Positions 2,859 through 64,000 of a stretch of 64,000 nucleotides of DNA are shown piece by piece. The position numbers and the translations under genes are program-made. Numbering within the stretch: the stretch's first letter is position 1; each line of letters opens with the position of its first letter. The DNA comes from Gallionellaceae bacterium (lineage in GTDB: Bacteria > Pseudomonadota > Gammaproteobacteria > Burkholderiales > Gallionellaceae): contig JBCKTV010000002.1 in the NCBI GenBank assembly GCA_038925365.1, positions 5,713 through 69,712 of the forward strand, given 5' to 3'. Below the pieces are notes generated by a model. It searched no databases. It was not told the origin of the DNA and saw nothing but the letters and a program-made list of their open reading frames with translations.

Positions 2859-3491
2859 CTAATCAGTCACACACAAGCTCTCGCACGGCACACCGTCACC
2901 ATCCCCATCCAGTGATTTAACACCACAGTGCAGAAAATAAATTTTCGCTTCCTCGCAAGTTTTCATCTTACTGCACAAATATTTTTTGCCGCAAGCTGGG
3001 TTTACTGCCTTGCTTGGGTTTGTTATTGAAGGATGTGACTTGCGCCACTGTTGCGGCGAAATTGGCTGCGCGGATTGTGCCCACAAACCCCGCCGTGATT
3101 GTTTCGCCTGCTTGTTCAATTCAACGTAATGTTTGTTGGGATAAAAATTTGAATCTCCCCAAGCCATGCCCTCGCGCACCTGCTCCTCATTCACACTCTG
3201 CCCATCAATGCTGATCTCGGCGATCATGCGGCCATAGCTATCCACGGCCTTACTGTTGATCCGCACCTGCTTTTTCAACACCCTATCCACCAGCGCCTGG
3301 CGTGACTCCTTGCCGAACACCTGCGCCGATTCAGGTGCATCGATATAGGCCAGACGCACCTTGATCTTCTTGCCATCGCGCAACACCATCACGGTATCGC
3401 CATCCATCACAGCAATGACCTTGGCGTAAAATTCATCAGCATAAGCAAGATTGAAAGAAGCACTGACTAGCAACAGTAAAATCAGACGCAT
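2859..3491 (-). CDS. secreted thermonuclease (SNase-like) with C-terminal excalibur calcium-binding domain
   Basis: Signal peptide, SNase-like core (VIAVMDGDTV...RLAYIDAPE) and C-terminal DGDGDGVPCE excalibur motif. Confidence 0.8.
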   Translation of the reverse strand: MRLILLLLVSASFNLAYADEFYAKVIAVMDGDTVMVLRDGKKIKVRLAYIDAPESAQVFGKESRQALVDRVLKKQVRINSKAVDSYGRMIAEISIDGQSVNEEQVREGMAWGDSNFYPNKHYVELNKQAKQSRRGLWAQSAQPISPQQWRKSHPSITNPSKAVNPACGKKYLCSKMKTCEEAKIYFLHCGVKSLDGDGDGVPCESLCVTD

Positions 3492-3615
3492 TCAATCCTC
3501 CTTGCTTGTCAACAAACGTAGTTTATTTTCGGTCACCAAGTAGGTTCCCTTGCTATTGATTACATCAGTCAAATAACTGGATAACGACAAGCCCCTGCTC
3601 GTCTATGGCAATGAT

Positions 3616-4128
3616 TTACATCATGCTTTTGATAAAAGCCAAACACAGCAGTGCATACCCTGCCGCCAGCAGGTCATCAAACATGACACCAAATCCACCA
3701 TGCATATTTTGATCGAAATATTTGATAGGTTGTGGTTTGACGATGTCGAAGAAACGGAATAGTACGAAGGCCAGCAGTTGCCAATAGAGCCAGTTGGGAC
3801 CATCCGGTGTAAAGAACAGTACCAGCATGAAGGCCACTATCTCATCCCACACGATGCCGCCGTGATCATCCACCCCCAATGCATGGCTGGTTTTGTCGCA
3901 TATCCACACGCCTATGATGAATGCCAGAATCAGGAACAACAGAAACAAGTAGTCATTCATCAGGGGGGCGAGTAGCCAATACAGGGGGAAGGCAACTAAG
4001 GTGCCTGCGGTGCCTGGCGCTTTTGGAACGAGGCCGCTACCAAAGCCCAAAGCAAAGAAATGTGCCGGGTGGCTGAACAGCAATTTTAAATCGGGTTTCA
4101 GATAAAATTTTTCATTTGAAATGGTCAT
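3616..4128 (-). CDS. pgpA: phosphatidylglycerophosphatase A
   Basis: FFALGFGSGLVPKAPGTAGTL motif, polytopic membrane protein, overlaps the end of thiL as in many proteobacteria. Confidence 0.85.
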   Translation of the reverse strand: MTISNEKFYLKPDLKLLFSHPAHFFALGFGSGLVPKAPGTAGTLVAFPLYWLLAPLMNDYLFLLFLILAFIIGVWICDKTSHALGVDDHGGIVWDEIVAFMLVLFFTPDGPNWLYWQLLAFVLFRFFDIVKPQPIKYFDQNMHGGFGVMFDDLLAAGYALLCLAFIKSMM

Positions 4129-5065
4129 AGCCGGTTTCCTCTAGCGTCATTACACTGCCATCTGCTGCAACTATTTTACAAGCTGAACCTGCGACTATGT
4201 TGCCGATACAAGTTAGCGGCAAAGCAAGTTGCGCGGATAATTTTTTGATCTCCGCATGGCGGAGGGCTGATGCGGTGAAACATAATTCATAATCATCACC
4301 GCCTGCCAACACACATTGTTTTCCCAATGTTTGCCCAAGATACGGTTTGAGGTGTGTTGAAACGGGTAAGGCAGAAAACTGTATCTCGGCAGCGACTTTA
4401 GAGCGATCCAGTATATGTCCAAGATCGGCGAGCAAGCCATCGGAAATATCTATCGCACTATGCGCAATGCCGCACAAGGCGAGACCCAGGACAACACGAG
4501 GTACAGGACGGTGCAAGGCGGTTGCAGTGGCATGGAAACTAGCATCATCCAGTTTTAGTTTTCCCTGAAGGTGCGCCAGCGCCAACGCGGCATCGCCAAG
4601 CTTGCCCGACACCCATATTTCATCACCCACCTGTGCACCGTCTCGCCGCAATGCTTTTCCCTGCGGTACTTCGCCCATGATGGTGACACACAAATTGAGC
4701 GGGCCGCGTGTGGTATCGCCGCCGATCAACTCGACTTGATGCTCATTCGCCAGCGCAAAAAACCCGGCACTGAAGCGCTCCAGCCATGCCTCATCTACAC
4801 TGGGTAATGACAGTGCCAAAGTTGCCCAGCGTGGCTGCGCACCCATTGCTGCCATATCGGAAAGATTGACTGCCAGCACCTTGTGGCCAAGTAGATAGGG
4901 ATCGGCATCAGCAAAGAAATGCGTGCCGCTGACCAGCATGTCGGTGGAGATTGCCAGCTCCATGCCGCTGGCGACACGCACCAGCGCTGCATCATCACCC
5001 ACGCCTAAAACTGCACTGGGCGTGGCACGGGTAAAGTAACGCTGGATTAGGCTGAATTCGGACAA
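4112..5065 (-). CDS. thiL: thiamine-monophosphate kinase
   Basis: N-terminus MSEFSLIQRYF, GDDAALV and STDMLVSGTHF motifs of the AIR-synthase-like ThiL family. Confidence 0.9.
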   Translation of the reverse strand: MSEFSLIQRYFTRATPSAVLGVGDDAALVRVASGMELAISTDMLVSGTHFFADADPYLLGHKVLAVNLSDMAAMGAQPRWATLALSLPSVDEAWLERFSAGFFALANEHQVELIGGDTTRGPLNLCVTIMGEVPQGKALRRDGAQVGDEIWVSGKLGDAALALAHLQGKLKLDDASFHATATALHRPVPRVVLGLALCGIAHSAIDISDGLLADLGHILDRSKVAAEIQFSALPVSTHLKPYLGQTLGKQCVLAGGDDYELCFTASALRHAEIKKLSAQLALPLTCIGNIVAGSACKIVAADGSVMTLEETGYDHFK

Positions 5066-5102: not shown

Positions 5103-5246
5103 TTAGAGAGTTACTGTGTCACGACACTTTTAAATCCCCCCTAGCCCCCCTTTTACAAAGTGGGGAACACTCTAACTGCTAAGAGTCTAACTGGTTCCCC
5201 ACTTTCCCAAAGGGGGGCTAGGGGGGAGAGCTAGCGAGGGGGCGTG
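5103..5246. repeat. C/G-tract palindromic REP/MITE-like element, copy 2
   Basis: Left flank tagagagttactgtgtcacgacactttt, then aaatcccccctagccccccttttacaaagtggggaa, a loop, then ttccccactttcccaaaggggggctaggggggag. Lies between nusB and thiL. Confidence 0.85.
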
Positions 5247-6191: not shown

Positions 6192-7289
6192 TTATCCTTC
6201 GCTATGTACATATCCTACGACTTCCAAACCAAAACCGGCCATGCTGGGCAACTTGCGCGGGGTGCCTATCAGTCGCATTTTACCGACATTCAGATCACGC
6301 AGTATTTGGGCGCCGATGCCGTAACTGCGAGGATCCCAGCGTGCTGCATGGTGGGTCTCCGGCGTAGCCGCTGCACGTGCAAGCAAATCCTGCGATGTTT
6401 CATTGTGATGCAACATCACCATCACGCCGACAGCTGACTGTTTTATTTTGAGTAGCGCATCGTGCACGCTGGTTGAATTTGGATAGCTCGCTTGCTCGAG
6501 GAAATCTAGCACCGACAGTGGCTCATGCACGCGCACCAGTGTTTCGACATTAGCTTGGATCTTGCCTTTAACCAGCGCCAGATGGGTGCATTGCGTAGTC
6601 TTGTCCACATAGGTACGTAGCTCCAGCTCGCCATAAGCGGTCTGCACATTACGCGTGGCAACACACTCCACCAGCTTTTCTGTTTGACTGCGATGCTCAA
6701 TCAGGTCGGCTATGGTACCGATTTTTAGATTGTGTGTTTTTGCATAAATAATCAGATCAGGCAGACGCGCCATCTCGCCGTCTTCTTTCAATATTTCGCA
6801 AATAACCGAAGCCGGTGTCAACCCGGCAAGTGCTGCCAAATCACAACCCGCTTCGGTGTGACCGGCACGCACCAGCACGCCGCCGTTTTTTGCACGTAAA
6901 GGGAAGATGTGGCCGGGCATCACAATATCGGAAGGTTTTGCATTTTTATCCGCCGCCACCAGCACGGTGCGTGCACGGTCGGCAGCCGAAATGCCGGTGG
7001 TCACTCCGGTTGATGCTTCTATCGACAGGGTAAAGTTGGTTGCCAGTGCTAAACCGTTTTCACGCACCATCAGCGGCAGGTCAATCTGCTTGCAATGCGC
7101 TTCGGTCAAGGTTAGGCAAATCAGGCCACGGCCATGTTTGGCCATGAAATTTATTTTTTCGGCAGTGACAAATTCGGCGGCAAACACCAGATCGCCTTCG
7201 TTCTCGCGATCTTCCTCGTCTATCAGCACCACCATGCGCCCCTGGCGCATTTCTTCAATTATTTCCAATACTGGTGCTATGTCTGTCAT
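6192..7289 (-). CDS. ribBA: bifunctional 3,4-dihydroxy-2-butanone-4-phosphate synthase / GTP cyclohydrolase II-like protein
   Basis: DHBP synthase motifs DEEDRENEGDL and GHTEA, followed by a C-terminal GCHII-like domain. 365 aa. Confidence 0.9.
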   Translation of the reverse strand: MTDIAPVLEIIEEMRQGRMVVLIDEEDRENEGDLVFAAEFVTAEKINFMAKHGRGLICLTLTEAHCKQIDLPLMVRENGLALATNFTLSIEASTGVTTGISAADRARTVLVAADKNAKPSDIVMPGHIFPLRAKNGGVLVRAGHTEAGCDLAALAGLTPASVICEILKEDGEMARLPDLIIYAKTHNLKIGTIADLIEHRSQTEKLVECVATRNVQTAYGELELRTYVDKTTQCTHLALVKGKIQANVETLVRVHEPLSVLDFLEQASYPNSTSVHDALLKIKQSAVGVMVMLHHNETSQDLLARAAATPETHHAARWDPRSYGIGAQILRDLNVGKMRLIGTPRKLPSMAGFGLEVVGYVHSEG

Positions 7290-7442
7290 TTCTTGCTTAC
7301 CTTTTATCTTTCAACTATTTTTATTAATACTGCAATTTTACCATTAGCAATTCAAGTGACATCATGCCCGATTAACTATTCGCTCTAAACCCTCTCTCTG
7401 ACAGAGGTGGAACATAGCGAGGGGACCTAGCAGCCTATCAAT

Positions 7443-7490
7443 CTTAGACGGCATGCTTATCATAACATATTGATTATATTGAATATAATT
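7443..7490 (-). repeat. AT-rich intergenic element with IHF-consensus core, copy B
   Basis: The reverse complement reads attatattcaatatAATCAAtatgTTAtgataagcatgccgtctaag. Lies between the histidine kinase gene and ribBA. Confidence 0.8.
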
Positions 7491-7537
7491 ACAGGTGGCT
7501 GGTGCATTAAGGTGAGTAGACCATGAGATAACTGCCT

Positions 7538-10033
<2,496 letters not shown>

Positions 10034-55732: not shown

Positions 55733-56470
55733 TCATTCTGCCCCCAGATTGACTTGCACCATGCGATCCATTTCAGCAGGGCGCGGCGGAATATCAGACA
55801 GAATATGACTGACAAACTCGCTCTTATTTGTGATTTTGAGGCCGGTATTGGCGCGTTTTTCAAACCCGATCGTCGTCGACGGTTTACCGGAAATACCCGC
55901 GCCGCAAACGCTGCCTGATGTATGGCCAGGGAAGACTTCCACATCATTCGGCAGAGACATCAGCTTGGTATGTAAGCTGTCGAACAACTGCTCTGCCCAC
56001 TCCTTGCTCTTGCCCGCCAGATCAGGGCGACCGATGCTACCCACAAACAGGGTGTCGCCAGTGAGCACAAACCAAGGTTCCGCACTGCGACGTTTATCGG
56101 TCACCGTCAAACAGATACTGTCCGGGGTATGGCCGGGGGTGTGGATCACCTTTACCTCAACGTTGCCCAGTTCGATGACTTCACCGTCGGAAAGCGCATG
56201 AAAGGGAAATTTCACCCTGCCCTGATTGGACTCATGCAAGCAATAGAGCGCACCGGTTTTTTCGGCGAGCGCACGACCACCCGAGTAGTGATCGGCATGC
56301 ACATGAGTATCGAATACATGGGTGATTTTGACGTTCTGCTTCGCCGCCTCTTCAATGAACCAGTCCTCATCTCCCGCTACCGGGTCCACCACCACCGCAA
56401 CTGCGCATGTGCCGCATCCGAGCAAATAAGACAGGGTGGCTTCCTTGGCAAAACGTTGTCTGAAAAACAT
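55733..56470 (-). CDS. MBL-fold hydrolase, persulfide dioxygenase / Blh-like
   Basis: THVHADH (HxHxDH), HTPGHT and GDTLF motifs. Adjacent to an ArsR-rhodanese regulator gene. Confidence 0.75.
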   Translation of the reverse strand: MFFRQRFAKEATLSYLLGCGTCAVAVVVDPVAGDEDWFIEEAAKQNVKITHVFDTHVHADHYSGGRALAEKTGALYCLHESNQGRVKFPFHALSDGEVIELGNVEVKVIHTPGHTPDSICLTVTDKRRSAEPWFVLTGDTLFVGSIGRPDLAGKSKEWAEQLFDSLHTKLMSLPNDVEVFPGHTSGSVCGAGISGKPSTTIGFEKRANTGLKITNKSEFVSHILSDIPPRPAEMDRMVQVNLGAE

Positions 56471-56615: not shown

Positions 56616-57296
56616 TCATTTATCAAGTGGTAGCTGATAGCTTTTCCATTCAGGAAAACCATCTTCCAGTCGCCGCGCCCGATAGCCGTGCTGTCGCAAT
56701 TGATCGACCGCATCGAAAGACATCATGCAATAAGGCCCACGACAATAAGCAACAATTTCCTGGTCTTTGGGTAATTTGCTTAAGCGCTGGATTAATGAAT
56801 CCAACGGGATATTGACTGCCCCTTCGATATGGCCTGCGTCGTACTCGGAAGACGGGCGCACATCTATCACCATCGCCTCGCCGGATTTCACCAAGCCCAA
56901 AAGCTCATCACGGCGCACCGGGGTGAGCTTGTCCCTGCTATTAAAGTTTTCACGCACAATGCGCTCCACTTCGGCCAGATGCCGTTCAGCGACATATCGG
57001 ATACTGGATAACAACACCGGCACTTTCTCATCGCTCAGGCTGTAAATCACCTGAGTCCCTTCCTTGCGAGATTGCACCAGCCCCCCTTCGCGCATGATAC
57101 GCAAATGATTGGAGGTATTCGCCACCGACATGCCACTTGCCTGCGCCAGGCCATCCACACTGCGCTCGCCCTGAGCAAGGGCTTCCAGCAACTCCAGCCG
57201 ATTGGCGCTTGCCAGTGCTTTGGCGACACGTGCGAAGTTTTCGAATAATTTCTTTTTGGGGGTAATGGCAGTCATCAGGGTAGTCTCATATTGCAA
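56616..57296 (-). CDS. ArsR/SmtB-family transcriptional regulator fused to a rhodanese domain
   Basis: HTH region LANRLELLEALAQGERSVDGLA...NTSNHLRIM. C-terminal rhodanese domain with active-site loop YCRGPYC. Confidence 0.85.
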   Translation of the reverse strand: MQYETTLMTAITPKKKLFENFARVAKALASANRLELLEALAQGERSVDGLAQASGMSVANTSNHLRIMREGGLVQSRKEGTQVIYSLSDEKVPVLLSSIRYVAERHLAEVERIVRENFNSRDKLTPVRRDELLGLVKSGEAMVIDVRPSSEYDAGHIEGAVNIPLDSLIQRLSKLPKDQEIVAYCRGPYCMMSFDAVDQLRQHGYRARRLEDGFPEWKSYQLPLDK

Positions 57297-57452: not shown

Positions 57453-58418
57453 ATGAACATAATCAAGCCTTGGCTCGCCCTCATCATCAGCCTGCCCACC
57501 TCAAACGCGACAGCACGAATGCGCGTCTGGCGTGCCTTGAAAAGCGCGGGTTGCGGGGTTTTGCGCGACGGAGTGTATTTGCTGCCGGACAGCCCGGCGG
57601 CAGCACTCAGTCTTCAGCAGCAGGCTGCGGAGGTTATTGCGGCAGATGGCACTGCACACATCGTTAAGCTGAGCAGCACCCACGCTGCGCAAGACCTATC
57701 CTTCCGTAAATTGTTTGAGCGCACGGATGATTATGTATCGCTCAAGCATGATGTCGATGCTTTTACCTCCACCATGGGCACACAAAATTCGCTTGTAAAT
57801 AAACGCTCGCTTAAACGGCTAACACGCGACTTTGCCGCGATCTCAGCCATCGATTTTTTTCCCGGCGCGGCACGCGAGCAGATAGCGTTGTTGCTAGCCC
57901 AGGCAACTGCCGAGCAGGCCGCTATCTCCAATCCAGATGAGCCACGCCCCATACAGGGCAAGATTAAAAAACTTAAACGTGAGGATTATCAGAAACGCAC
58001 TTGGGCAACGCGCAAACGGATGTGGGTAGACCGCATGGCAAGTGCGTGGCTGATCAAACGCTTTATTGATCCCGCTGCCAGCTTCAAATGGCTGAATAAG
58101 CCACAGGATTGCCCGAAGAGCGCGCTGGGCTTTGATTTTGACGGCGCAAGTTTTACCCATGTTGGCTCACTGGTGAGTTTTGAGGTGTTGATGACCAGCT
58201 TTATTCATCAACCTGACCGCGCGCTTGAACGACTGGCAGCGGTAGTGCATTATCTCGATGCAGGCGGTATTCCGGTAGCGGAAGCACACGGGCTGGCATT
58301 GATACTCAAAGGCATGCGGGTACGCTGCAAGGATGATGACCAGCTACTAATTGAAGCAAGCACTATTTTTGATGATTTGTACGTTAGCTATACACAAGAG
58401 GAGAATAAAGATGAGTAA
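57453..58418 (+). CDS. chrB: chromate resistance protein ChrB
   Basis: N-terminus LPTSNATARMRVWRALKSAGCGVLRDGVYLLP is typical of ChrB. It overlaps the chrA start. Confidence 0.8.
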   Translation: MNIIKPWLALIISLPTSNATARMRVWRALKSAGCGVLRDGVYLLPDSPAAALSLQQQAAEVIAADGTAHIVKLSSTHAAQDLSFRKLFERTDDYVSLKHDVDAFTSTMGTQNSLVNKRSLKRLTRDFAAISAIDFFPGAAREQIALLLAQATAEQAAISNPDEPRPIQGKIKKLKREDYQKRTWATRKRMWVDRMASAWLIKRFIDPAASFKWLNKPQDCPKSALGFDFDGASFTHVGSLVSFEVLMTSFIHQPDRALERLAAVVHYLDAGGIPVAEAHGLALILKGMRVRCKDDDQLLIEASTIFDDLYVSYTQEENKDE

Positions 58419-59797
58419 TAATGAAATTCCAACTACGCCGCCGCCCCCCGTGTCATATTGGGAGTCGTTCCGTTACTGGCTGCAGCTGGGCTTTATCAGT
58501 TTCGGCGGACCTGCCGGGCAAATTTCAATGATGCATCAAGAGTTGGTGGAACGACGCCGCTGGATTTCCGAGCATCGTTTTATGCACGGCCTTAATTACT
58601 GCATGATGCTGCCAGGACCGGAAGCGCAGCAGCTCGCCACTTACATCGGCTGGCTGATGCACGGGGTAAAGGGTGGTATCACTGCTGGTGTGTTGTTTGT
58701 GTTACCCTCGCTGTTTATTTTGATCGCGCTGACCTGGATTTACCTAGCCTTTGGCGACCTGCCAGTGGTGATCGGCATACTGTATGGCATCAAGCCTGCG
58801 GTGACCGCCATTGTGTTATTTGCGGCTTATCGCATCGGCTCGCGTGCGCTGAAAAATAATGTGTTGTGGGCGATAGCAGCGGCGGCATTTATAGCGATTT
58901 TTGTATTTAATCTGCCCTTCCCTGTCATTGTGCTAGCGGCGGCCATCACTGGATATTTGGGTAGCCTTATTGCACCGAACAAATTCAAGGCGGGCGGCGG
59001 TCATGGTGCATCGGATAAAACTTATGGCCCGGCCATTATCGATGACGATACACCCACACCTGCTCATGCTAAATTCCATTGGCCGCGTGTCATACGCTAC
59101 ACGACTATCGGCATTTCGATCTGGGCTGCAATCATGGCTGGCCTGTTTGCAACTTACGGCTGGGACGGCGTACTGACGCAGATGGGCTGGTTCTTTACCA
59201 AGGCAGCGCTGGTGACCTTTGGCGGCGCCTATGCGGTGTTGCCCTATGTGTTTCAGGGTGGCGTGATCGATTTCCAATGGCTGACCGCAACACAGATGAT
59301 AGACGGCTTAGCCCTGGGTGAAACTACCCCCGGCCCGTTGATCATGGTGGTGGCGTTTGTTGGTTTTGTAGGTGGCTGGACCAAGGAATTGTTCGGCCCC
59401 GATGCTTTGTTCATGGCAGGGGGCGGCAGCCGCTACCGTGGCAACCATTTTCACTTTCTTGCCTTCTTTCCTGTTTATCCTGGTGGGGGGACCTGCGGTG
59501 GAAGCAACCCGTGGCGATCTGAAATTTACCGCGCCACTTACCGGCATCACCGCAGCTGTGGTGGGGGTGATCCTCAACCTTGCGCTGTTTTTTGCCTACC
59601 ATGTGCTGTGGCCGAAAGGCATCAGCGATCCACTGAGCGTACAAAGTTTGTTCACAGGTTTTGAATGGTTTAGCCTAGCGGTGGGTATTGCAGCGTTTAT
59701 CGCGCTATTTCGCTACAAGGTTGGTATTATGCAAGTTATCGCCGCGAGTGCAGTGCTAGGACTGAGCTATTCATTTATCAAACCGTTGTTGTCATAA
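58411..59797 (+). pseudogene. chrA: chromate transporter ChrA interrupted by a +1 frameshift in a G5 run
   Basis: The N-terminal part (58411 to about 59420) and the C-terminal part (frame of ORF 59372..59797, GAAAATVATIFTFLPSFLFILVGGP) are both CHR-family sequence. The frames join if one G of 59419-59423 is removed. Confidence 0.8.
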
Positions 59798-60218: not shown

Positions 60219-60686
60219 ATGATGAATAAACATAATACTTGGATTGCTGCCGTTGCGGCCTTGCTGCTCACTGCACAAGCTTATGCGGCGGATGTAACAA
60301 TCGACGATGCTTGGGCTCGTGCCACAGCACCTGGGCAGGAGAATGGATCCGTTGGCCTGGTGATCACCAGCGCAAAAGATGCCCGCCTGATTGCAGTTAC
60401 AACACCCGCTGCTAAATTTGCCGAGATACATACCATGACCATGGAAAATGGTGTGATGAAGATGCGCCAATTGGAAGACTTGCCTTTACCTGCAAAGCAG
60501 CCTGTCAAGCTTGGGCCGGGTGGTGATCATCTGATGCTTTTTAACCTTAAAAAGCCATTGAAGGCCGGTGAAGAAATTCCACTGACTTTAACCATACAAT
60601 TTTCCGATAAACGTAGCGAGAAAATCAACATCAAAGCACAGATCAAGCCGCTCACAGCAGCACAAGACAATCACCACGCTCATTAG
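60219..60686 (+). CDS. periplasmic copper chaperone PCu(A)C (DUF461)
   Basis: Start set at MMNKHNTW, preceded by GGAGA. Signal peptide. Cu-binding pattern HTMTMENGVMKM...GGDHLML. Confidence 0.8.
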   Translation: MMNKHNTWIAAVAALLLTAQAYAADVTIDDAWARATAPGQENGSVGLVITSAKDARLIAVTTPAAKFAEIHTMTMENGVMKMRQLEDLPLPAKQPVKLGPGGDHLMLFNLKKPLKAGEEIPLTLTIQFSDKRSEKINIKAQIKPLTAAQDNHHAH

Positions 60687-60718
60687 ACTTATAGAGAAAT
60701 TAAAATTACTACTAATGC

Positions 60719-60746
60719 TTTAATATTCAATATAATCAACGTATTG
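60719..60746 (+). repeat. AT-rich intergenic element with IHF-consensus core, copy N
   Basis: ttaatattcaatatAATCAAcgtaTTG. Confidence 0.8.
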
Positions 60747-60794
60747 CACAATACCACCCAAGTCAAACTCGCCCCAGTATCAGGCTGAATTTTG

Positions 60795-61271
60795 CTACTG
60801 CACTGCCTCTTGGATTATTTCAGTGAGTAGCTCATTGACCGCCTTGAGTGCATCTTTTGATTTCTGTGTGCCAACCATCTGAGTCTTGCGATATGCGAGT
60901 CGTACTTCCTTAGGCTTGTTCGGCACCACGTATATATAGATGATATAGGGACAAAACACGATATTATCGGGATCTGCTTCCATCATTCTGCGCGATACTG
61001 TCGCACTGCAAAACTCAAGCGCCTCAGCCTTCAGGTAAATCTGCTTTACGCCACCCAGGTCTTTGCCGGTACGTTCCAGCATATCGCCTATATGCGATAC
61101 GCTATTAATGACAAAGCCTCGCCCGGTAAGCGCCTGCTCAACGGCTTCCCTAGCATCATCAAAGCTACCTTGCCTGGTAAATACAGCCATATGATCGCCA
61201 TCTGCGTAGGCAAATTGAGTCACTCCAACAAACGCGAATATCGCTACTAAACGATTAATTAATTTAAACAT
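60795..61271 (-). CDS. secreted DUF302-domain protein
   Basis: Signal peptide. The size and the segment LEFCSATVSRRMMEADP...FCPY resemble DUF302 proteins. Confidence 0.6.
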   Translation of the reverse strand: MFKLINRLVAIFAFVGVTQFAYADGDHMAVFTRQGSFDDAREAVEQALTGRGFVINSVSHIGDMLERTGKDLGGVKQIYLKAEALEFCSATVSRRMMEADPDNIVFCPYIIYIYVVPNKPKEVRLAYRKTQMVGTQKSKDALKAVNELLTEIIQEAVQ

Positions 61272-61372
61272 TATTTAATTCCTGGTTATTTTAATGATGG
61301 CATGTTAACGCAAAGTATCCTTCAATAGAGCAGCCTGCCTCCTGTTCCATACTAAAAGCCGCACCTGCAAAT

Positions 61373-61403
61373 GCATAACGGCGCCACTAGGGCGCCGTTA
61401 TGC
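61373..61403 (-). terminator. 13-bp GC-rich hairpin downstream of the DsrE-like gene
   Basis: GCATAACGGCGCCactagGGCGCCGTTATGC. The U tract is weak. Confidence 0.5.
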
Positions 61404-61436
61404 AAAGTTACAAAGCTTTGTTACACCCAATACATA

Positions 61437-61856
61437 CTATGGGCGAATATAAGCGTAACCTTCTTTTTGTTTTTGCATCAGTTCAACAACACCTGCTTTC
61501 ACATAGCTGGTATTTGGCAGCATATCGGCAGCGGTCAACTTCTGACCTTTCATGCTATTTTCGCATGCCACAATAGTTACATTGGCCTTTTTAGCATCCT
61601 CAATACGGCCTGCAACCGTTGAATCTAACTTCAACATGGGCATTGCGGGACCAAACACAACGATCTCTACATCAACTTTATCTGCACCAAATTCTTGTTG
61701 TACGTTTTTTGCGACATTGAGTGCAAGGTTCCATTTGGCAGGTTCCGCATCACTAACTTGAATAATAACTTTTTCTTTCGCTGCTGCGGTTGCTACCTGT
61801 GATGCAAAAACCATGGAAAGTGCAAGTGCAGCAACAACTAACTTGATGTATTTCAT
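61437..61856 (-). CDS. secreted DsrE/DsrF-like family protein (COG1416-like)
   Basis: Signal peptide. KVIIQVSD...VEIVVFGP...IVACENS...GYAYIRP pattern of the small DsrE-like family. Confidence 0.65.
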   Translation of the reverse strand: MKYIKLVVAALALSMVFASQVATAAAKEKVIIQVSDAEPAKWNLALNVAKNVQQEFGADKVDVEIVVFGPAMPMLKLDSTVAGRIEDAKKANVTIVACENSMKGQKLTAADMLPNTSYVKAGVVELMQKQKEGYAYIRP

Positions 61857-61910
61857 TTTAACTTCCTCCGTTTATTATTAAGGTGCAACTGACACAGCAG
61901 TCACAAGCTT

Positions 61911-61938
61911 TAGACGTAGCGACTGCTTGAATTATTCC
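61911..61938 (-). promoter_or_regulatory. candidate ECF-type promoter for the DsrE-like gene
   Basis: The minus strand reads GGAAT-aattcaagcagtcgcta(17)-CGTCTAA, about 55 nt upstream of the ATG at 61856. Confidence 0.5.
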
Positions 61939-61985
61939 ATTAATTTTAAAAAATTATTCTTGTTGACATTTTACCTGCTGCAATT

Positions 61986-62013
61986 GGAATATTTCACTAC
62001 ATCCTTACGTCTT
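61986..62013 (+). promoter_or_regulatory. candidate autoregulatory ECF-type promoter for the sigma/anti-sigma operon
   Basis: GGAAT-atttcactacatcctta(17)-CGTCTT, 42 nt upstream of the ATG at 62055. Confidence 0.5.
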
Positions 62014-62054
62014 ATAATGACTATCATTCATCACTATTCGGCGTTCGCATCCAT

Positions 62055-62615
62055 ATGAACATTCTGTCCTTGTTTTGCAGCCCTAATGATTTTCAGAAGC
62101 AGTTGGAGCAAATACGGCCTAGGCTATATCGCCTTGCCTATTCATGGAGCCACAATGCGGCATTGGCGGATGACCTGGTGCAGGAGACGCTGATTAAAGC
62201 GCTTAAAAATTCCAGTCAATTACGTGACCGCGCTCTGTTAAACAGCTGGCTCTTCAGCATTCTGGCAAATTGCTGGCGTGATCATTTTCGTAAACACAGG
62301 GAAATGGACGATATTGAAGAACTCGATGATTTTCGTTATGCGCACGAAAACACTCCTGAAATCGCACACTCAAAATCGCAGATTATTTCACGTGTTCGCA
62401 GTGCGATTGCACAGCTGCCTCTAGGGCAGCGTCAGGTTCTGACCCTCATCGATCTGGAGGAGCTTTCATATATAGAAGTCGCAGCAATTTTAGATATTCC
62501 CATTGGCACCGTAATGAGCCGCCTGTGCCGAGCCCGCGTATCCATGAAAGCACTATTAAAAGAGCTTGCTCCGCTACAGCCGGAACAAGTCATTCAAATA
62601 AGGAGAATCAAATGA
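62055..62615 (+). CDS. ECF-family RNA polymerase sigma factor
   Basis: Sigma-70 region 2 (DLVQETLIKAL...WLFSILANCWRDHFR) and region 4 (LPLGQRQVLTLIDLEELSYIEVAAILDIPIGTVMSRLCRAR). Confidence 0.9.
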   Translation: MNILSLFCSPNDFQKQLEQIRPRLYRLAYSWSHNAALADDLVQETLIKALKNSSQLRDRALLNSWLFSILANCWRDHFRKHREMDDIEELDDFRYAHENTPEIAHSKSQIISRVRSAIAQLPLGQRQVLTLIDLEELSYIEVAAILDIPIGTVMSRLCRARVSMKALLKELAPLQPEQVIQIRRIK

Positions 62616-63343
62616 TGCCTAATCAAAATATTACCGATGAGCATCTGAATTTATTCGTAGATAATCAGCTTGACTCTGCCGAAAAAAATCAGACATACGA
62701 TGCCATCAGTCAAGATAAGCAATTACAAGAGAAGGTGTGCGCATTACGCGGATTGAAAGAGGTGATTCAACATGCATACAGCCATCCTCCAGCAGTCGTG
62801 CGGCCCTCAGCAAGAGAACTTCGCTCATGGGCTCCAAATTATCAAGCCCTAGCTGCATGCCTGTTGCTATTACTTGGCGGTGTTTCCGGCTGGCTAACAC
62901 ATGCATGGGCAAGCAGAGAGAGCAATCGCGAGATAACAAGCATGATACAGGCCGTGCAACGCAGCGATGTCGCCTCAGAGACGCGCAAAGTAATTATTCA
63001 CGTTAGCAATTCAAGCCCAATGAAAATCATAACCGCCTTGGATGAAACAGAAGGCCTGCTGAATAACTACAGGCGCGCCAATCGACAAATTCAAGTTGAA
63101 ATAATTACCAATAAGCGAGGTGTAGATTTGCTACGTTCAGATGTATCAGCCCATAAGAAACGTATCAGTCTGATGCAGGAAAAGTATCCCAATCTGAGCT
63201 TTATGGTATGCGGCAAAACCATCAGCAAATTACGTAACGATGGTGAAAGTGTAGCTCTGCTCCCGCATACGGGAATAGCCACTTCAGCCGCCGACCAAAT
63301 TCAAAAACGAATGCACCAGGGGTGGGGCTACATCAAGATATAA
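62612..63343 (+). CDS. membrane anti-sigma factor with a periplasmic DsrE-like domain
   Basis: ATGA overlap with the sigma gene. Short N-terminal cytoplasmic segment and one TM helix (ALAACLLLLLGGVSGWL). The C-terminal roughly 130 aa (KVIIHVSN...VEIITN...FMVCGKT...GWGYIKI) parallel the 61437-61856 protein. Confidence 0.65.
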   Translation: MMPNQNITDEHLNLFVDNQLDSAEKNQTYDAISQDKQLQEKVCALRGLKEVIQHAYSHPPAVVRPSARELRSWAPNYQALAACLLLLLGGVSGWLTHAWASRESNREITSMIQAVQRSDVASETRKVIIHVSNSSPMKIITALDETEGLLNNYRRANRQIQVEIITNKRGVDLLRSDVSAHKKRISLMQEKYPNLSFMVCGKTISKLRNDGESVALLPHTGIATSAADQIQKRMHQGWGYIKI

Positions 63344-63856
63344 AGGCTTAGGTGAATTTTATCGTCTTATTTTCGCAACAAACAAGGAGCTATATTAGCC
63401 CTCTCTAAAATACTTCAGCATACCTTTGAAATTTATATTTCATCATTTTCCTATAGGCCAGAATCCAGTCTAATCAAACATATTGCTGCTCCATCTTCGC
63501 GTGGACAACGACATTTTTAGAGGTGCCCTTGATCTTGGCAACGGCAGCCATGTCACCTAGACGGGATAAAATAGAAAAAATCGCTTGTCAGATATGGATC
63601 AAATTGCGTAAACTGCTGAAGTCGATTATTTATGAACGTCGGTCTCTCCAGGAAATATGGTTTGATTCGAAATATTTGCCCATCGATAGTAGAAGTGGAT
63701 GTGAAGTTTGCCCGAGGCAAGTGCTCAACAAATTTCAAAACATTAATACTGTTTTTTGGCAAAAATAATCACATAGGTGAGAATAAAAGAAAGTTGATCA
63801 GAATACCGATTACATAGAGAAGTATTTAAGTTTAATTTTATTTGAGGGGTTGTGAA

Positions 63857-64000
63857 ATGGATCAATTACGTAGAACATTTTTTAAGAGCGCCGGAATTGC
63901 CGGTTCCATAGTGGTTGCTATCGGCGCAGGTTTGCTTAAGTCTGGCGAAGTATTGGCAGCAGCTTGGAATACAAGTGCATTCACAGCAAAAAATATGCCT
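63857..64000 (+). CDS. Tat-signal periplasmic protein, SoxY-like N-terminus (3'-truncated by the window end)
   Basis: ATG preceded by GAGGGG. MDQLRRTFFKSAGIAG twin-arginine signal, then AAAWNTSAFTAKNMP, which resembles SoxY N-termini. Only 48 codons are visible. Confidence 0.45.
   Translation, partial: MDQLRRTFFKSAGIAGSIVVAIGAGLLKSGEVLAAAWNTSAFTAKNMP

Follow-up and report, generated by a model that had tools for sequence, protein, structure and literature searches.

An ECF26-like sigma/anti-sigma module with a predicted periplasmic DsrE-like domain in sulfur-oxidizing Beta- and Gammaproteobacteria

Introduction

Little is known of how chemolithotrophic sulfur oxidizers perceive extracytoplasmic thiosulfate, polysulfide, or sulfite; the regulators reported to date are repressors that act in the cytoplasm. 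The question is raised by a locus in a 64,000-nucleotide stretch of DNA from a Gallionellaceae bacterium (GenBank assembly GCA_038925365.1, contig JBCKTV010000002.1, positions 5,713 to 69,712 of the forward strand; the whole stretch is hereinafter the window), where a gene for an extracytoplasmic function (ECF) sigma factor overlaps one for a single-pass membrane protein, and a secreted protein resembling the C-terminal part of the latter is encoded divergently upstream. What is this membrane protein, which genes would the sigma factor serve, and what signal might open the switch? We find the locus to be a real, conserved module, and we hold with moderate confidence that it is an ECF26-like sigma/anti-sigma switch of sulfur-oxidizing Beta- and Gammaproteobacteria, in which a periplasmic DsrE-like domain reports sulfur species via a cysteine, Cys200.

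Results

An ECF sigma/anti-sigma gene pair with a divergent secreted paralogue

The core of the locus, in window coordinates, is laid out as follows:

62055..62615, plus strand: gene for the ECF26-like sigma factor (186 aa; Pfam and NCBIfam matches)
62612..63343, plus strand: gene for the single-pass anti-sigma factor (243 aa; from an AlphaFold2 (AF2) model, Foldseek, and a profile against PDB sequences)
Within that gene, plus strand: residues 1-58, predicted cytoplasmic anti-sigma domain; residues ~77-99, predicted membrane helix (62840-62908)
62984..63340, plus strand: residues 125-243 of the anti-sigma factor, predicted periplasmic DsrE-like domain (Cys200 codon 63209-63211)
61437..61856, minus strand: gene for the secreted DsrE-like (COG1416-type) paralogue (139 aa; Cys98 codon 61563-61565)
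61910..61938, minus strand: predicted ECF-type promoter facing the DsrE-like gene (-35 GGAAT 61938-61934, 17-nt gap, -10 CGTCTAA 61916-61910)
61986..62013, plus strand: predicted ECF-type autoregulatory promoter facing the sigma gene (-35 GGAAT 61986-61990, 17-nt gap, -10 CGTCTT 62008-62013)

The anti-sigma ATG at 62612 sits inside an ATGA overlap with the sigma gene, and the two genes are translationally coupled; the divergent intergenic region (61857-62054) measures 198 bp. This is the layout that an initial annotation, made from the letters of the window, had described, and its coordinates for the sigma gene, the overlapping 243-codon gene, the divergent gene, and the spacer between them are all correct.

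By its domain content the sigma factor is an ECF (group 4) sigma-70 protein: within its 186 residues Pfam finds only Sigma70_r2 (residues 18-82) and Sigma70_r4_2 (residues 113-162), and the NCBIfam sigma70-ECF model scores 85 bits against a cutoff of 42.9. The earlier ECF assignment is borne out by this restriction to the sigma-2 and sigma-4 domains. Chromid-borne ECF sigmas, including that of an RpoE1-type locus, are 36-39% identical to the window sigma, the best being a chromid sigma of Cupriavidus metallidurans CH34 with the RpoE1-type ECF26 layout (37.6% identity). The locus of this C. metallidurans relative reads DUF305, beta-propeller, sigma, anti-sigma, which is the layout of the tetrathionate-responsive RpoE1 locus of Starkeya novella. 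We regard the sigma factor as ECF26-like, a likeness judged from this identity together with the promoter motif described below.

The membrane protein joins an anti-sigma domain to a DsrE-like fold

The full 243-residue membrane protein has no match in Pfam. A full-length AF2 model built on 19 homologues resolves it into N-terminal helices (9-16, 22-34, and 36-57), a hydrophobic helix (~77-99) with arginine and lysine residues ahead of it, a linker of low confidence (residues 100-121), and an alpha/beta domain (125-242) with a predicted local distance difference test (pLDDT) score above 90. Since the arginine and lysine residues precede the hydrophobic helix, the N-terminus is predicted to be cytoplasmic; the same topology would place the C-terminal domain in the periplasm.

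When a model of the N-terminal 75 residues was used as a Foldseek query, all 17 matches were ECF anti-sigma domains (ChrR, RslA, MucA, RskA, and RsiW), with a root-mean-square deviation (rmsd) of 0.9-1.7 Å to ChrR and RslA over 44-47 columns. The individual E-values are weak (2.7-8.5), and sequence searches with this domain against the PDB and Pfam retrieved no match; nevertheless, the unanimity of the matches and the low rmsd make a persuasive case that the modeled domain has the class I anti-sigma domain fold. Moreover, its motif (D/E)xxLNA(F/Y)VDxQLD is common to the ECF-sigma-adjacent anti-sigma factors of Ensifer, Rhizobium, Cupriavidus, and Alcanivorax, as is the membrane helix, whereas their periplasmic part is a different domain. 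Both the fold and this shared LNAFVDxQLD motif support the identification of the protein as an anti-sigma factor in the initial annotation. A zinc-binding anti-sigma (ZAS)-type zinc switch is ruled out, as the cytoplasmic part has one conserved cysteine, no conserved histidine, and no HxxxCxxC motif; likewise, Pfam finds no FecR domain in the protein.

For the C-terminal domain, Foldseek searches against the PDB retrieved 1l1s (MTH1491; template-modeling (TM) score 0.90, rmsd 1.8 Å, E 3e-8) and 2pd2 (ST0148; TM 0.88), the rmsd ranging from 1.8 to 1.9 Å, with DsrE of DsrEFH as the next match (2hy5_A, E 1e-3). In agreement with this, a profile of 27 orthologous C-terminal domains recovered 1l1s among PDB sequences with an E-value of 2e-18, and 16 of these 27 domains matched Pfam DsrE at E<=1 (best 3e-8). 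The modeled domain is thus a DsrE-like fold of the MTH1491/ST0148 (COG1416) type, as had been proposed from short sequence blocks. The 27-domain profile aligns Cys200 with the conserved cysteine of MTH1491 ('CACSNT') and ST0148 ('GCENS'), which we take to be the active-site cysteine of DsrE and TusD; it stands where the helix that follows the central strand begins.

A genome scan recovered 56 loci with a full-length anti-sigma homologue from Beta- and Gammaproteobacteria (individual loci are denoted by L numbers below). Cys200 is invariant across this family (56 of 56), whereas Cys43, in helix 3 of the cytoplasmic domain, is kept in 55 members and Cys83, in the membrane helix, in 24.

The twin promoter motif is conserved and matches the ECF26 consensus

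The two copies of GGAAT-N17-CGTCT in the divergent intergenic region (61938 to 61912 on the minus strand; 61986-62012 on the plus strand) are the only exact copies on either strand of the 64-kb window, where by our own arithmetic about 0.1 copies of 10 fixed bases would be expected by chance in 128 kb. The motifs reported earlier as standing back to back are therefore exact, correctly placed, and unique in the window. The core CGTC of the sigma-facing copy ends 43 nt before the ATG.

We then compared 611 kb of locus DNA (loci of ~12 kb each). Upstream of the sigma gene, GGAAT-N17-CGTC occurs in 50 sigma-facing and 44 opposite copies, 94 in all; by contrast, with the gap relaxed to 16-18 nt, the remaining ~600 kb of locus DNA gave ~13 further matches against a chance estimate of ~14. 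The consensus of the 94 sites is tGGAATAaa-N14-CGTCTt. Bases outside the search pattern are conserved as well: T precedes GGAAT in 66 of the 94 sites, A follows it in 92, the two bases after that are A or T, and CGTC is followed by T in 73. The spacer sequence itself is not conserved. Genuine -35 and -10 elements would be expected to look like this. The distance between the back-to-back copies varies from 25 to 91 nt.

The motif goes with its target genes, which are the sigma operon, the gene for the secreted paralogue, and soxY (the last in two loci). Where no divergent target gene is present (L040-42, L044, L048, and L051-53), the sigma-facing copy alone is kept, and in L024 and L029 the second copy faces a soxY-soxA-soxB...porin array. 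In L023, where the porin gene (3337-4674) is inverted, a GGAATAAT-N-CGTC copy (3023-3048) lies ~290 nt upstream of it; that the inverted gene has a motif copy of its own supports placing the porin gene in the regulon. The mapped consensus of the sulfite-responsive ECF26 sigmas SmRpoE4 and SnSigE is -35 GGAAT and -10 CGTC (PMC6527743), and the ECF26 motif given for C. metallidurans RpoL and RpoM is GGAATA/CGTTTT (PMC13492112, Table 4).

Taken together, the conservation of the motif and its match to a mapped consensus make it very probable that the twin motifs are promoters used by this sigma factor. The promoter reading of the initial annotation is upheld by the recurrence of the motif in ~50 loci and its identity with the ECF26 consensus (PMC6527743), and its inclusion of the secreted paralogue in the regulon by the finding that this gene is the conserved target of the second promoter. 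We also considered a palindromic operator for a dimeric regulator and rejected it: the inner 17-nt gap is fixed whereas the inter-copy distance ranges over 25-91 nt, and single copies, the third copy in L023, and identity to the mapped ECF26 promoter count against it as well.

A few well-formed copies have no plausible open reading frame (ORF) behind them, namely minus-strand motifs in L043 (~5190-5215) and L050 (~5199-5224), from Thiohalobacter thiocyanaticus and a relative, and in L034 (at 5330). In L043 and L050 this motif is directed towards a convergent gene of ~392 aa, at its 3′ end. These orphan copies may be relic promoters or small-RNA promoters.

A large family found in sulfur-oxidizing lineages

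An exhaustive profile search (E<=1e-30) gathered 391 clusters at 50% identity, by which measure the anti-sigma family is large; among the matches listed, nearly all anti-sigma clusters are full length (235-260 aa). Their database names include 'hypothetical protein', 'transmembrane anti-sigma factor', and 'intracellular sulfur oxidation DsrE/DsrF family protein'. The hosts in the genome scan include Gallionellaceae, Sulfuricella, Sulfurirhabdus, Sulfurimicrobium, and Hydrogenophilales/Parasulfuritortus, along with Thioalkalispiraceae, Thiohalobacter thiocyanaticus, Guyparkeria, Halothiobacillus, and Acidiferrobacterales; all of those named to family or genus belong to sulfur-oxidizing lineages.

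Wherever upstream DNA is present in the 56 loci, the anti-sigma gene is immediately preceded by the sigma gene. The secreted DsrE-like gene is found in 43 of the 56, nearly always divergently upstream; in L042 and L052 DsrE-like genes lie downstream, inside the sigma operon, and ~13 loci have no paralogue within 6 kb. In ~30 loci a gene of ~450 aa resembling OprO/OprP (phosphate-selective porin) follows the paralogue on the same strand; the conserved outer-membrane partner is an OprO/P-like porin and not a TonB-dependent receptor. Downstream of the anti-sigma gene, the Gallionellaceae clade has soxY, soxZ, soxB, soxA/X, and a YeeE-type 'sulphur transport' gene.

One gammaproteobacterial clade without the divergent paralogue (L048, L051, and L053; ~6731-7864) has a further gene right after the anti-sigma gene. 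The L048 product, the one searched against Pfam, is a 7-bladed beta-propeller of the lactonase type, and the gene recalls the beta-propeller genes of RpoE1-type ECF26 loci.

Full-text literature searches retrieved no description of this anti-sigma family, and the main text of the 2021 ECF reclassification mentions neither DsrE nor sulfur. The earlier statement that no characterized anti-sigma factor with this sensor domain was known agrees with these searches.

The secreted paralogue and the origin of the fusion

The 139-aa protein matches Pfam DsrE (28.4 bits against a cutoff of 22.7) and, among PDB sequences, 2pd2 (E 7e-13) and 1l1s (E 2e-10). A Sec signal peptide marks it as secreted, a feature seen in 45 of 47 homologues, and Cys98 is kept in 46 of the 47. 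BLASTP aligns it with residues 110-242 of the anti-sigma factor at 24% identity over 133 residues (E 4e-8), placing Cys200 opposite Cys98; the block-for-block parallel with an equivalent cysteine, first seen by eye in the two sequences, is thereby confirmed.

Of the anti-sigma C-terminal domains, 55 group in a single clade, and their identity to the secreted paralogues is ~23%, with same-locus pairs no closer than cross-locus pairs. This points to one old fusion; recent duplication or gene conversion within the locus was rejected on the grounds of the single 55-member clade and of an identity of ~23% regardless of locus.

A separate case is L056 (6001-6678; Betaproteobacteria metagenome-assembled genome, JAYWAM010000205.1), whose anti-sigma factor has the same N-terminal scaffold joined to a DsrE-like domain of the secreted-paralogue clade (42-51% identity to that clade; Pfam DsrE 32.3 bits). 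It lacks Cys43 and keeps the overall architecture, and the ~400 nt ahead of its sigma gene contain no GGAAT-N17-CGTC. From these sequence relationships it looks like an independent fusion or a domain swap. Because its C-terminal domain is of the secreted-type clade, the combination of DsrE-like and anti-sigma domains would have arisen or been rebuilt at least twice.

Neighboring genes and other features of the window

Three further features adjoin the module:

61373..61403, minus strand: perfect inverted repeat (13-bp arms, 5-nt loop), evident in the sequence itself
60795..61271, minus strand: secreted DUF302-like gene, the next same-strand gene after the DsrE-like gene (Pfam DUF302, below cutoff)
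63857..64000, plus strand: 5′ part of soxY, encoding a Tat leader (in the clade of the window, not preceded by an ECF motif)

The neighbors named in the initial annotation are largely confirmed: Pfam recognizes the rhodanese (55 bits) and PCuAC (123 bits) genes, and the gene at 63857 encodes a twin-arginine leader and shares 79% identity with the N-terminal end of a SoxY orthologue, itself a 115-bit match to Pfam SoxY. The DUF302 assignment stands only below the Pfam cutoff (19.8 bits against 23). The DUF302-like gene recurs at the same position in L001, L002, L003, L007, and L022; in the clade of the window it takes the place held by the porin gene in most other clades, and it is no more than a candidate member of the regulon.

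The inverted repeat (minus strand GCATAACGGCGCC-CTAGT-GGCGCCGTTATGC) lies 34 nt past the DsrE-like stop codon and is preceded by a second, imperfect hairpin. It may be a terminator or a protein-binding site; it lacks a long T run, and a simple terminator scan did not flag it. Scans for sigma-70 promoters and terminators performed at chance level, and the sole Rfam match over 60600-64000 was far below threshold.

The 513-nt spacer before soxY (63344-63856) contains near-invariant blocks (~63575-63650, 63766-63776, 63790-63820, and 63826-63859) shared by the window, L001, L002, L003, and L022, despite the proteins of these loci being only ~60% identical. The blocks contain a sigma-70-like TTGTCA-N18-TAAACT, while the spacer has neither an ECF motif nor an Rfam match. 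The sox operon looks like it has a separate promoter and a conserved leader or operator of ~240 nt. That soxY is a direct target of the sigma factor in the clade of the window is not supported, given that it has no motif upstream and has this separately conserved sigma-70-like promoter and leader.

Farther away, the gene after chrB (58351-59797) is split in two frames. The ORF 58351-59664 matches the L001 orthologue up to about residue 335 and the ORF 59372-59797 matches its residues 336-456, which indicates a frameshift or sequencing error near 59400. Judged from the chrB context, its product is probably chromate-transporter-like. In addition, a gene for an ArsR-type helix-turn-helix fused to a rhodanese (56616-57296, minus strand) adjoins one for a metallo-beta-lactamase-fold protein (55733-56470, minus strand), a pair that looks like a second, cytoplasmic sulfur-responsive regulatory unit nearby.

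Discussion

A proposed mechanism

We propose that, at rest, the anti-sigma factor would hold the sigma factor at the membrane until a periplasmic anionic or sulfane sulfur species, for which thiosulfate, tetrathionate, polysulfide, and sulfite are candidates, covalently modifies Cys200. The adduct might be a persulfide, thiosulfonate, or S-sulfonate, as on cytoplasmic DsrE-type proteins, and would shift the state of an oligomeric domain, probably a trimer, such that the sigma factor is released either directly or after regulated proteolysis. The freed sigma factor would then amplify itself and induce the periplasmic DsrE-like carrier together with the porin, and co-induction of an OprO/P-like porin suggests that the substrate is anionic. 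The secreted paralogue could close a feedback loop by taking sulfur from the sensor cysteine, by competing for the signal, or by forming mixed oligomers; sulfur exchange or mixed oligomers between the paralogue and the tethered domain are possible because the structural relatives are trimers, MTH1491 being a stable homotrimer (PMC5495134). As for the chemistry, cytoplasmic DsrE, TusD, and DsrE3A carry a persulfide or thiosulfonate on the equivalent cysteine, with thiosulfonate on the cysteines of DsrE3A and TusA (PMC4175335). By analogy with these proteins, sulfur sensing by a periplasmic DsrE-like domain is plausible. The regulon appears to be small and local, going by the distribution of the motif. 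The initial annotation had called the locus a 'cell-surface signalling module'; the switch itself holds up, but the term is loose, because there is neither a FecR domain nor a TonB-dependent transducer. In its most specific form, the proposal takes the DsrE fold to be a covalent, cysteine-based periplasmic sensor of inorganic sulfur that controls an ECF sigma factor and is coupled to an anion porin and a secreted DsrE-like carrier; this form we regard as possible but, on balance, doubtful.

Several observations weigh against reporting of sulfur species through Cys200. Sulfur binding by the COG1416 cysteine is extrapolated from other DsrE subfamilies, and the C-terminal domain of the window protein itself has no Pfam DsrE match. 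The soxY gene in the clade of the window has no ECF motif. In addition, Cys43 is nearly as conserved as Cys200 and could be the real sensor, and in the ECF26 systems that have been characterized, sulfite seemed to exert its effect intracellularly (PMC3511301).

Alternative explanations

The last two of these points lead to a cytoplasmic thiol switch, in which Cys43 would sense cytoplasmic sulfite, sulfane sulfur, or oxidants in an RsrA-like manner and the periplasmic DsrE-like domain would be a separate carrier or anchor. Cys43 is indeed specific to the family, being kept in 55 of the 56 members and absent from the ECF26 anti-sigmas of Ensifer, Rhizobium, and Cupriavidus, and for the related RpoE1 and RpoE4 the signal seems to be sulfite made inside the cell (PMC3511301). 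However, it is a single cysteine outside any HxxxCxxC zinc motif, and the L056 protein dispenses with it while retaining the overall architecture. The stricter conservation of Cys200, combined with at least two fusions of a DsrE domain to this scaffold, suggests that selection has favored the periplasmic end, and we consider a Cys43-based switch improbable. A signal read in the periplasm need not be a small molecule, as the domain might sense the amount or the sulfur load of the secreted paralogue; through mixed DsrE-type oligomers or Cys-to-Cys transfer, the anti-sigma factor would then end a periplasmic sulfur relay. Such contacts would suit DsrE-fold proteins, which are oligomeric (e.g., the MTH1491 homotrimer and the DsrEFH hetero-oligomer, 2hy5), with ST0148 being a building block of the designed T33 protein cage 8uja. 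The cysteine is kept in both proteins, and the paralogue is not only the conserved target of the second promoter but, in L042 and L052, has its counterparts inside the sigma operon. Against this, roughly 13 loci lack a paralogue within 6 kb, and domains that are ~23% identical, with same-locus pairs no closer than others, show no sign of co-evolution; sensing of a protein partner is accordingly unlikely.

The remaining alternative is a generic envelope-stress or proteolysis gate, with the DsrE-like domain only shielding the anti-sigma factor from site-1 cleavage and a trigger unrelated to sulfur. There are precedents for shielding, in that RseB protects RseA and the C-terminal domain of RsiV protects RsiV; as is generally known, most single-pass anti-sigma factors are inactivated by regulated proteolysis, and the low-confidence linker of the model (residues 100-121) could be a cleavage site. 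A trigger unrelated to sulfur is nonetheless hard to reconcile with hosts restricted to sulfur-oxidizing lineages, with a predicted regulon that pairs a DsrE-like carrier with an anion porin and in some loci takes in sox genes, and with an invariant Cys200, and we rate this gate as very improbable. Among these explanations, the one we favor is that the periplasmic domain reports sulfur species through Cys200, with the reservations set out above.

What is new and why it matters

Pairs of ECF sigma and single-pass anti-sigma factors, and the ties of the ECF26 branch to sulfite and thiosulfate, were already known. New are the fusion of a periplasmic DsrE fold to the anti-sigma scaffold, the pairing of this DsrE-bearing anti-sigma factor with a secreted paralogue and a porin, and the breadth of the family, which has been overlooked in Gallionellaceae, Sulfuricellaceae, Hydrogenophilales, Thioalkalispiraceae, Halothiobacillaceae, Thiohalobacter, and Acidiferrobacterales. 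The family provides a concrete sensor candidate whose cysteine and promoters are defined and whose regulon is minimal, and the system is tractable, with cultured carriers such as Sulfuricella denitrificans skB26, Guyparkeria, and Thiohalobacter thiocyanaticus. The COG1416 DsrE-like proteins, orphans with structures since 2002, gain a first functional context, one that would place them in the periplasm. For annotation, no database name covers both halves of the anti-sigma factor, and 'intracellular' is wrong for the predicted location of the DsrE-like domain. If the proposal is true, the module would be an extracytoplasmic sulfur relay ending in a transcription switch, the first such sensor in chemolithotrophic sulfur oxidizers, and the first signaling role for the DsrE family.

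Comparison with known systems

The closest known systems are those of ECF26, i.e., RpoE4/SMc04050 and RpoE1 of S. meliloti and SigE and RpoE1 of Starkeya novella, which respond to sulfite, thiosulfate, or tetrathionate and control sorT/sorAB. With these the present module shares the promoter (-35 GGAAT, -10 CGTC; PMC6527743), the anti-sigma N-terminal motif (D/E)xxLNA(F/Y)VDxQLD, a sigma factor ~37% identical to that of the C. metallidurans RpoE1-type locus, and the link to inorganic sulfur metabolism; co-transcription of the sigma and anti-sigma genes and a very small local regulon, both features of the known systems, are probable here too. It differs from them in that the COG5662-type periplasmic part is replaced by a DsrE-like domain with an invariant cysteine, in its probable targets (a secreted DsrE-like protein along with a porin or sox genes, as opposed to sulfite dehydrogenase), and in its chemolithotrophic beta- and gammaproteobacterial hosts. 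The DsrE-like domain, in turn, resembles MTH1491 (1l1s) and ST0148 (2pd2) in its predicted fold (TM 0.88-0.90) and in having a cysteine at the same position. Unlike the known COG1416, DsrE, TusD, and DsrE3A members, which are soluble cytoplasmic proteins of archaea and bacteria, one copy here is predicted to be Sec-secreted and the other to be tethered to the membrane as the anti-sigma C-terminus on the periplasmic face.

Sulfur availability is linked to sulfur-oxidation genes through cysteine chemistry by the ArsR-type SoxR of Hyphomicrobium and Paracoccus and the CsoR-type TTHA1953 (PMC10451225 and PMC10318464). SoxR and TTHA1953 are cytoplasmic one-component repressors, whereas the present module would be a transmembrane sigma/anti-sigma switch with a periplasmic domain. 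Its logic would be that of CnrYXH, with its periplasmic metal sensor CnrX, and of sigmaP/RsiP with PbpP, where a periplasmic ligand-binding module controls a single-pass anti-sigma factor. In those systems, however, the sensor is a separate protein with another fold and other ligands; here the putative sensor fold forms part of the anti-sigma factor itself and has a secreted paralogue besides.

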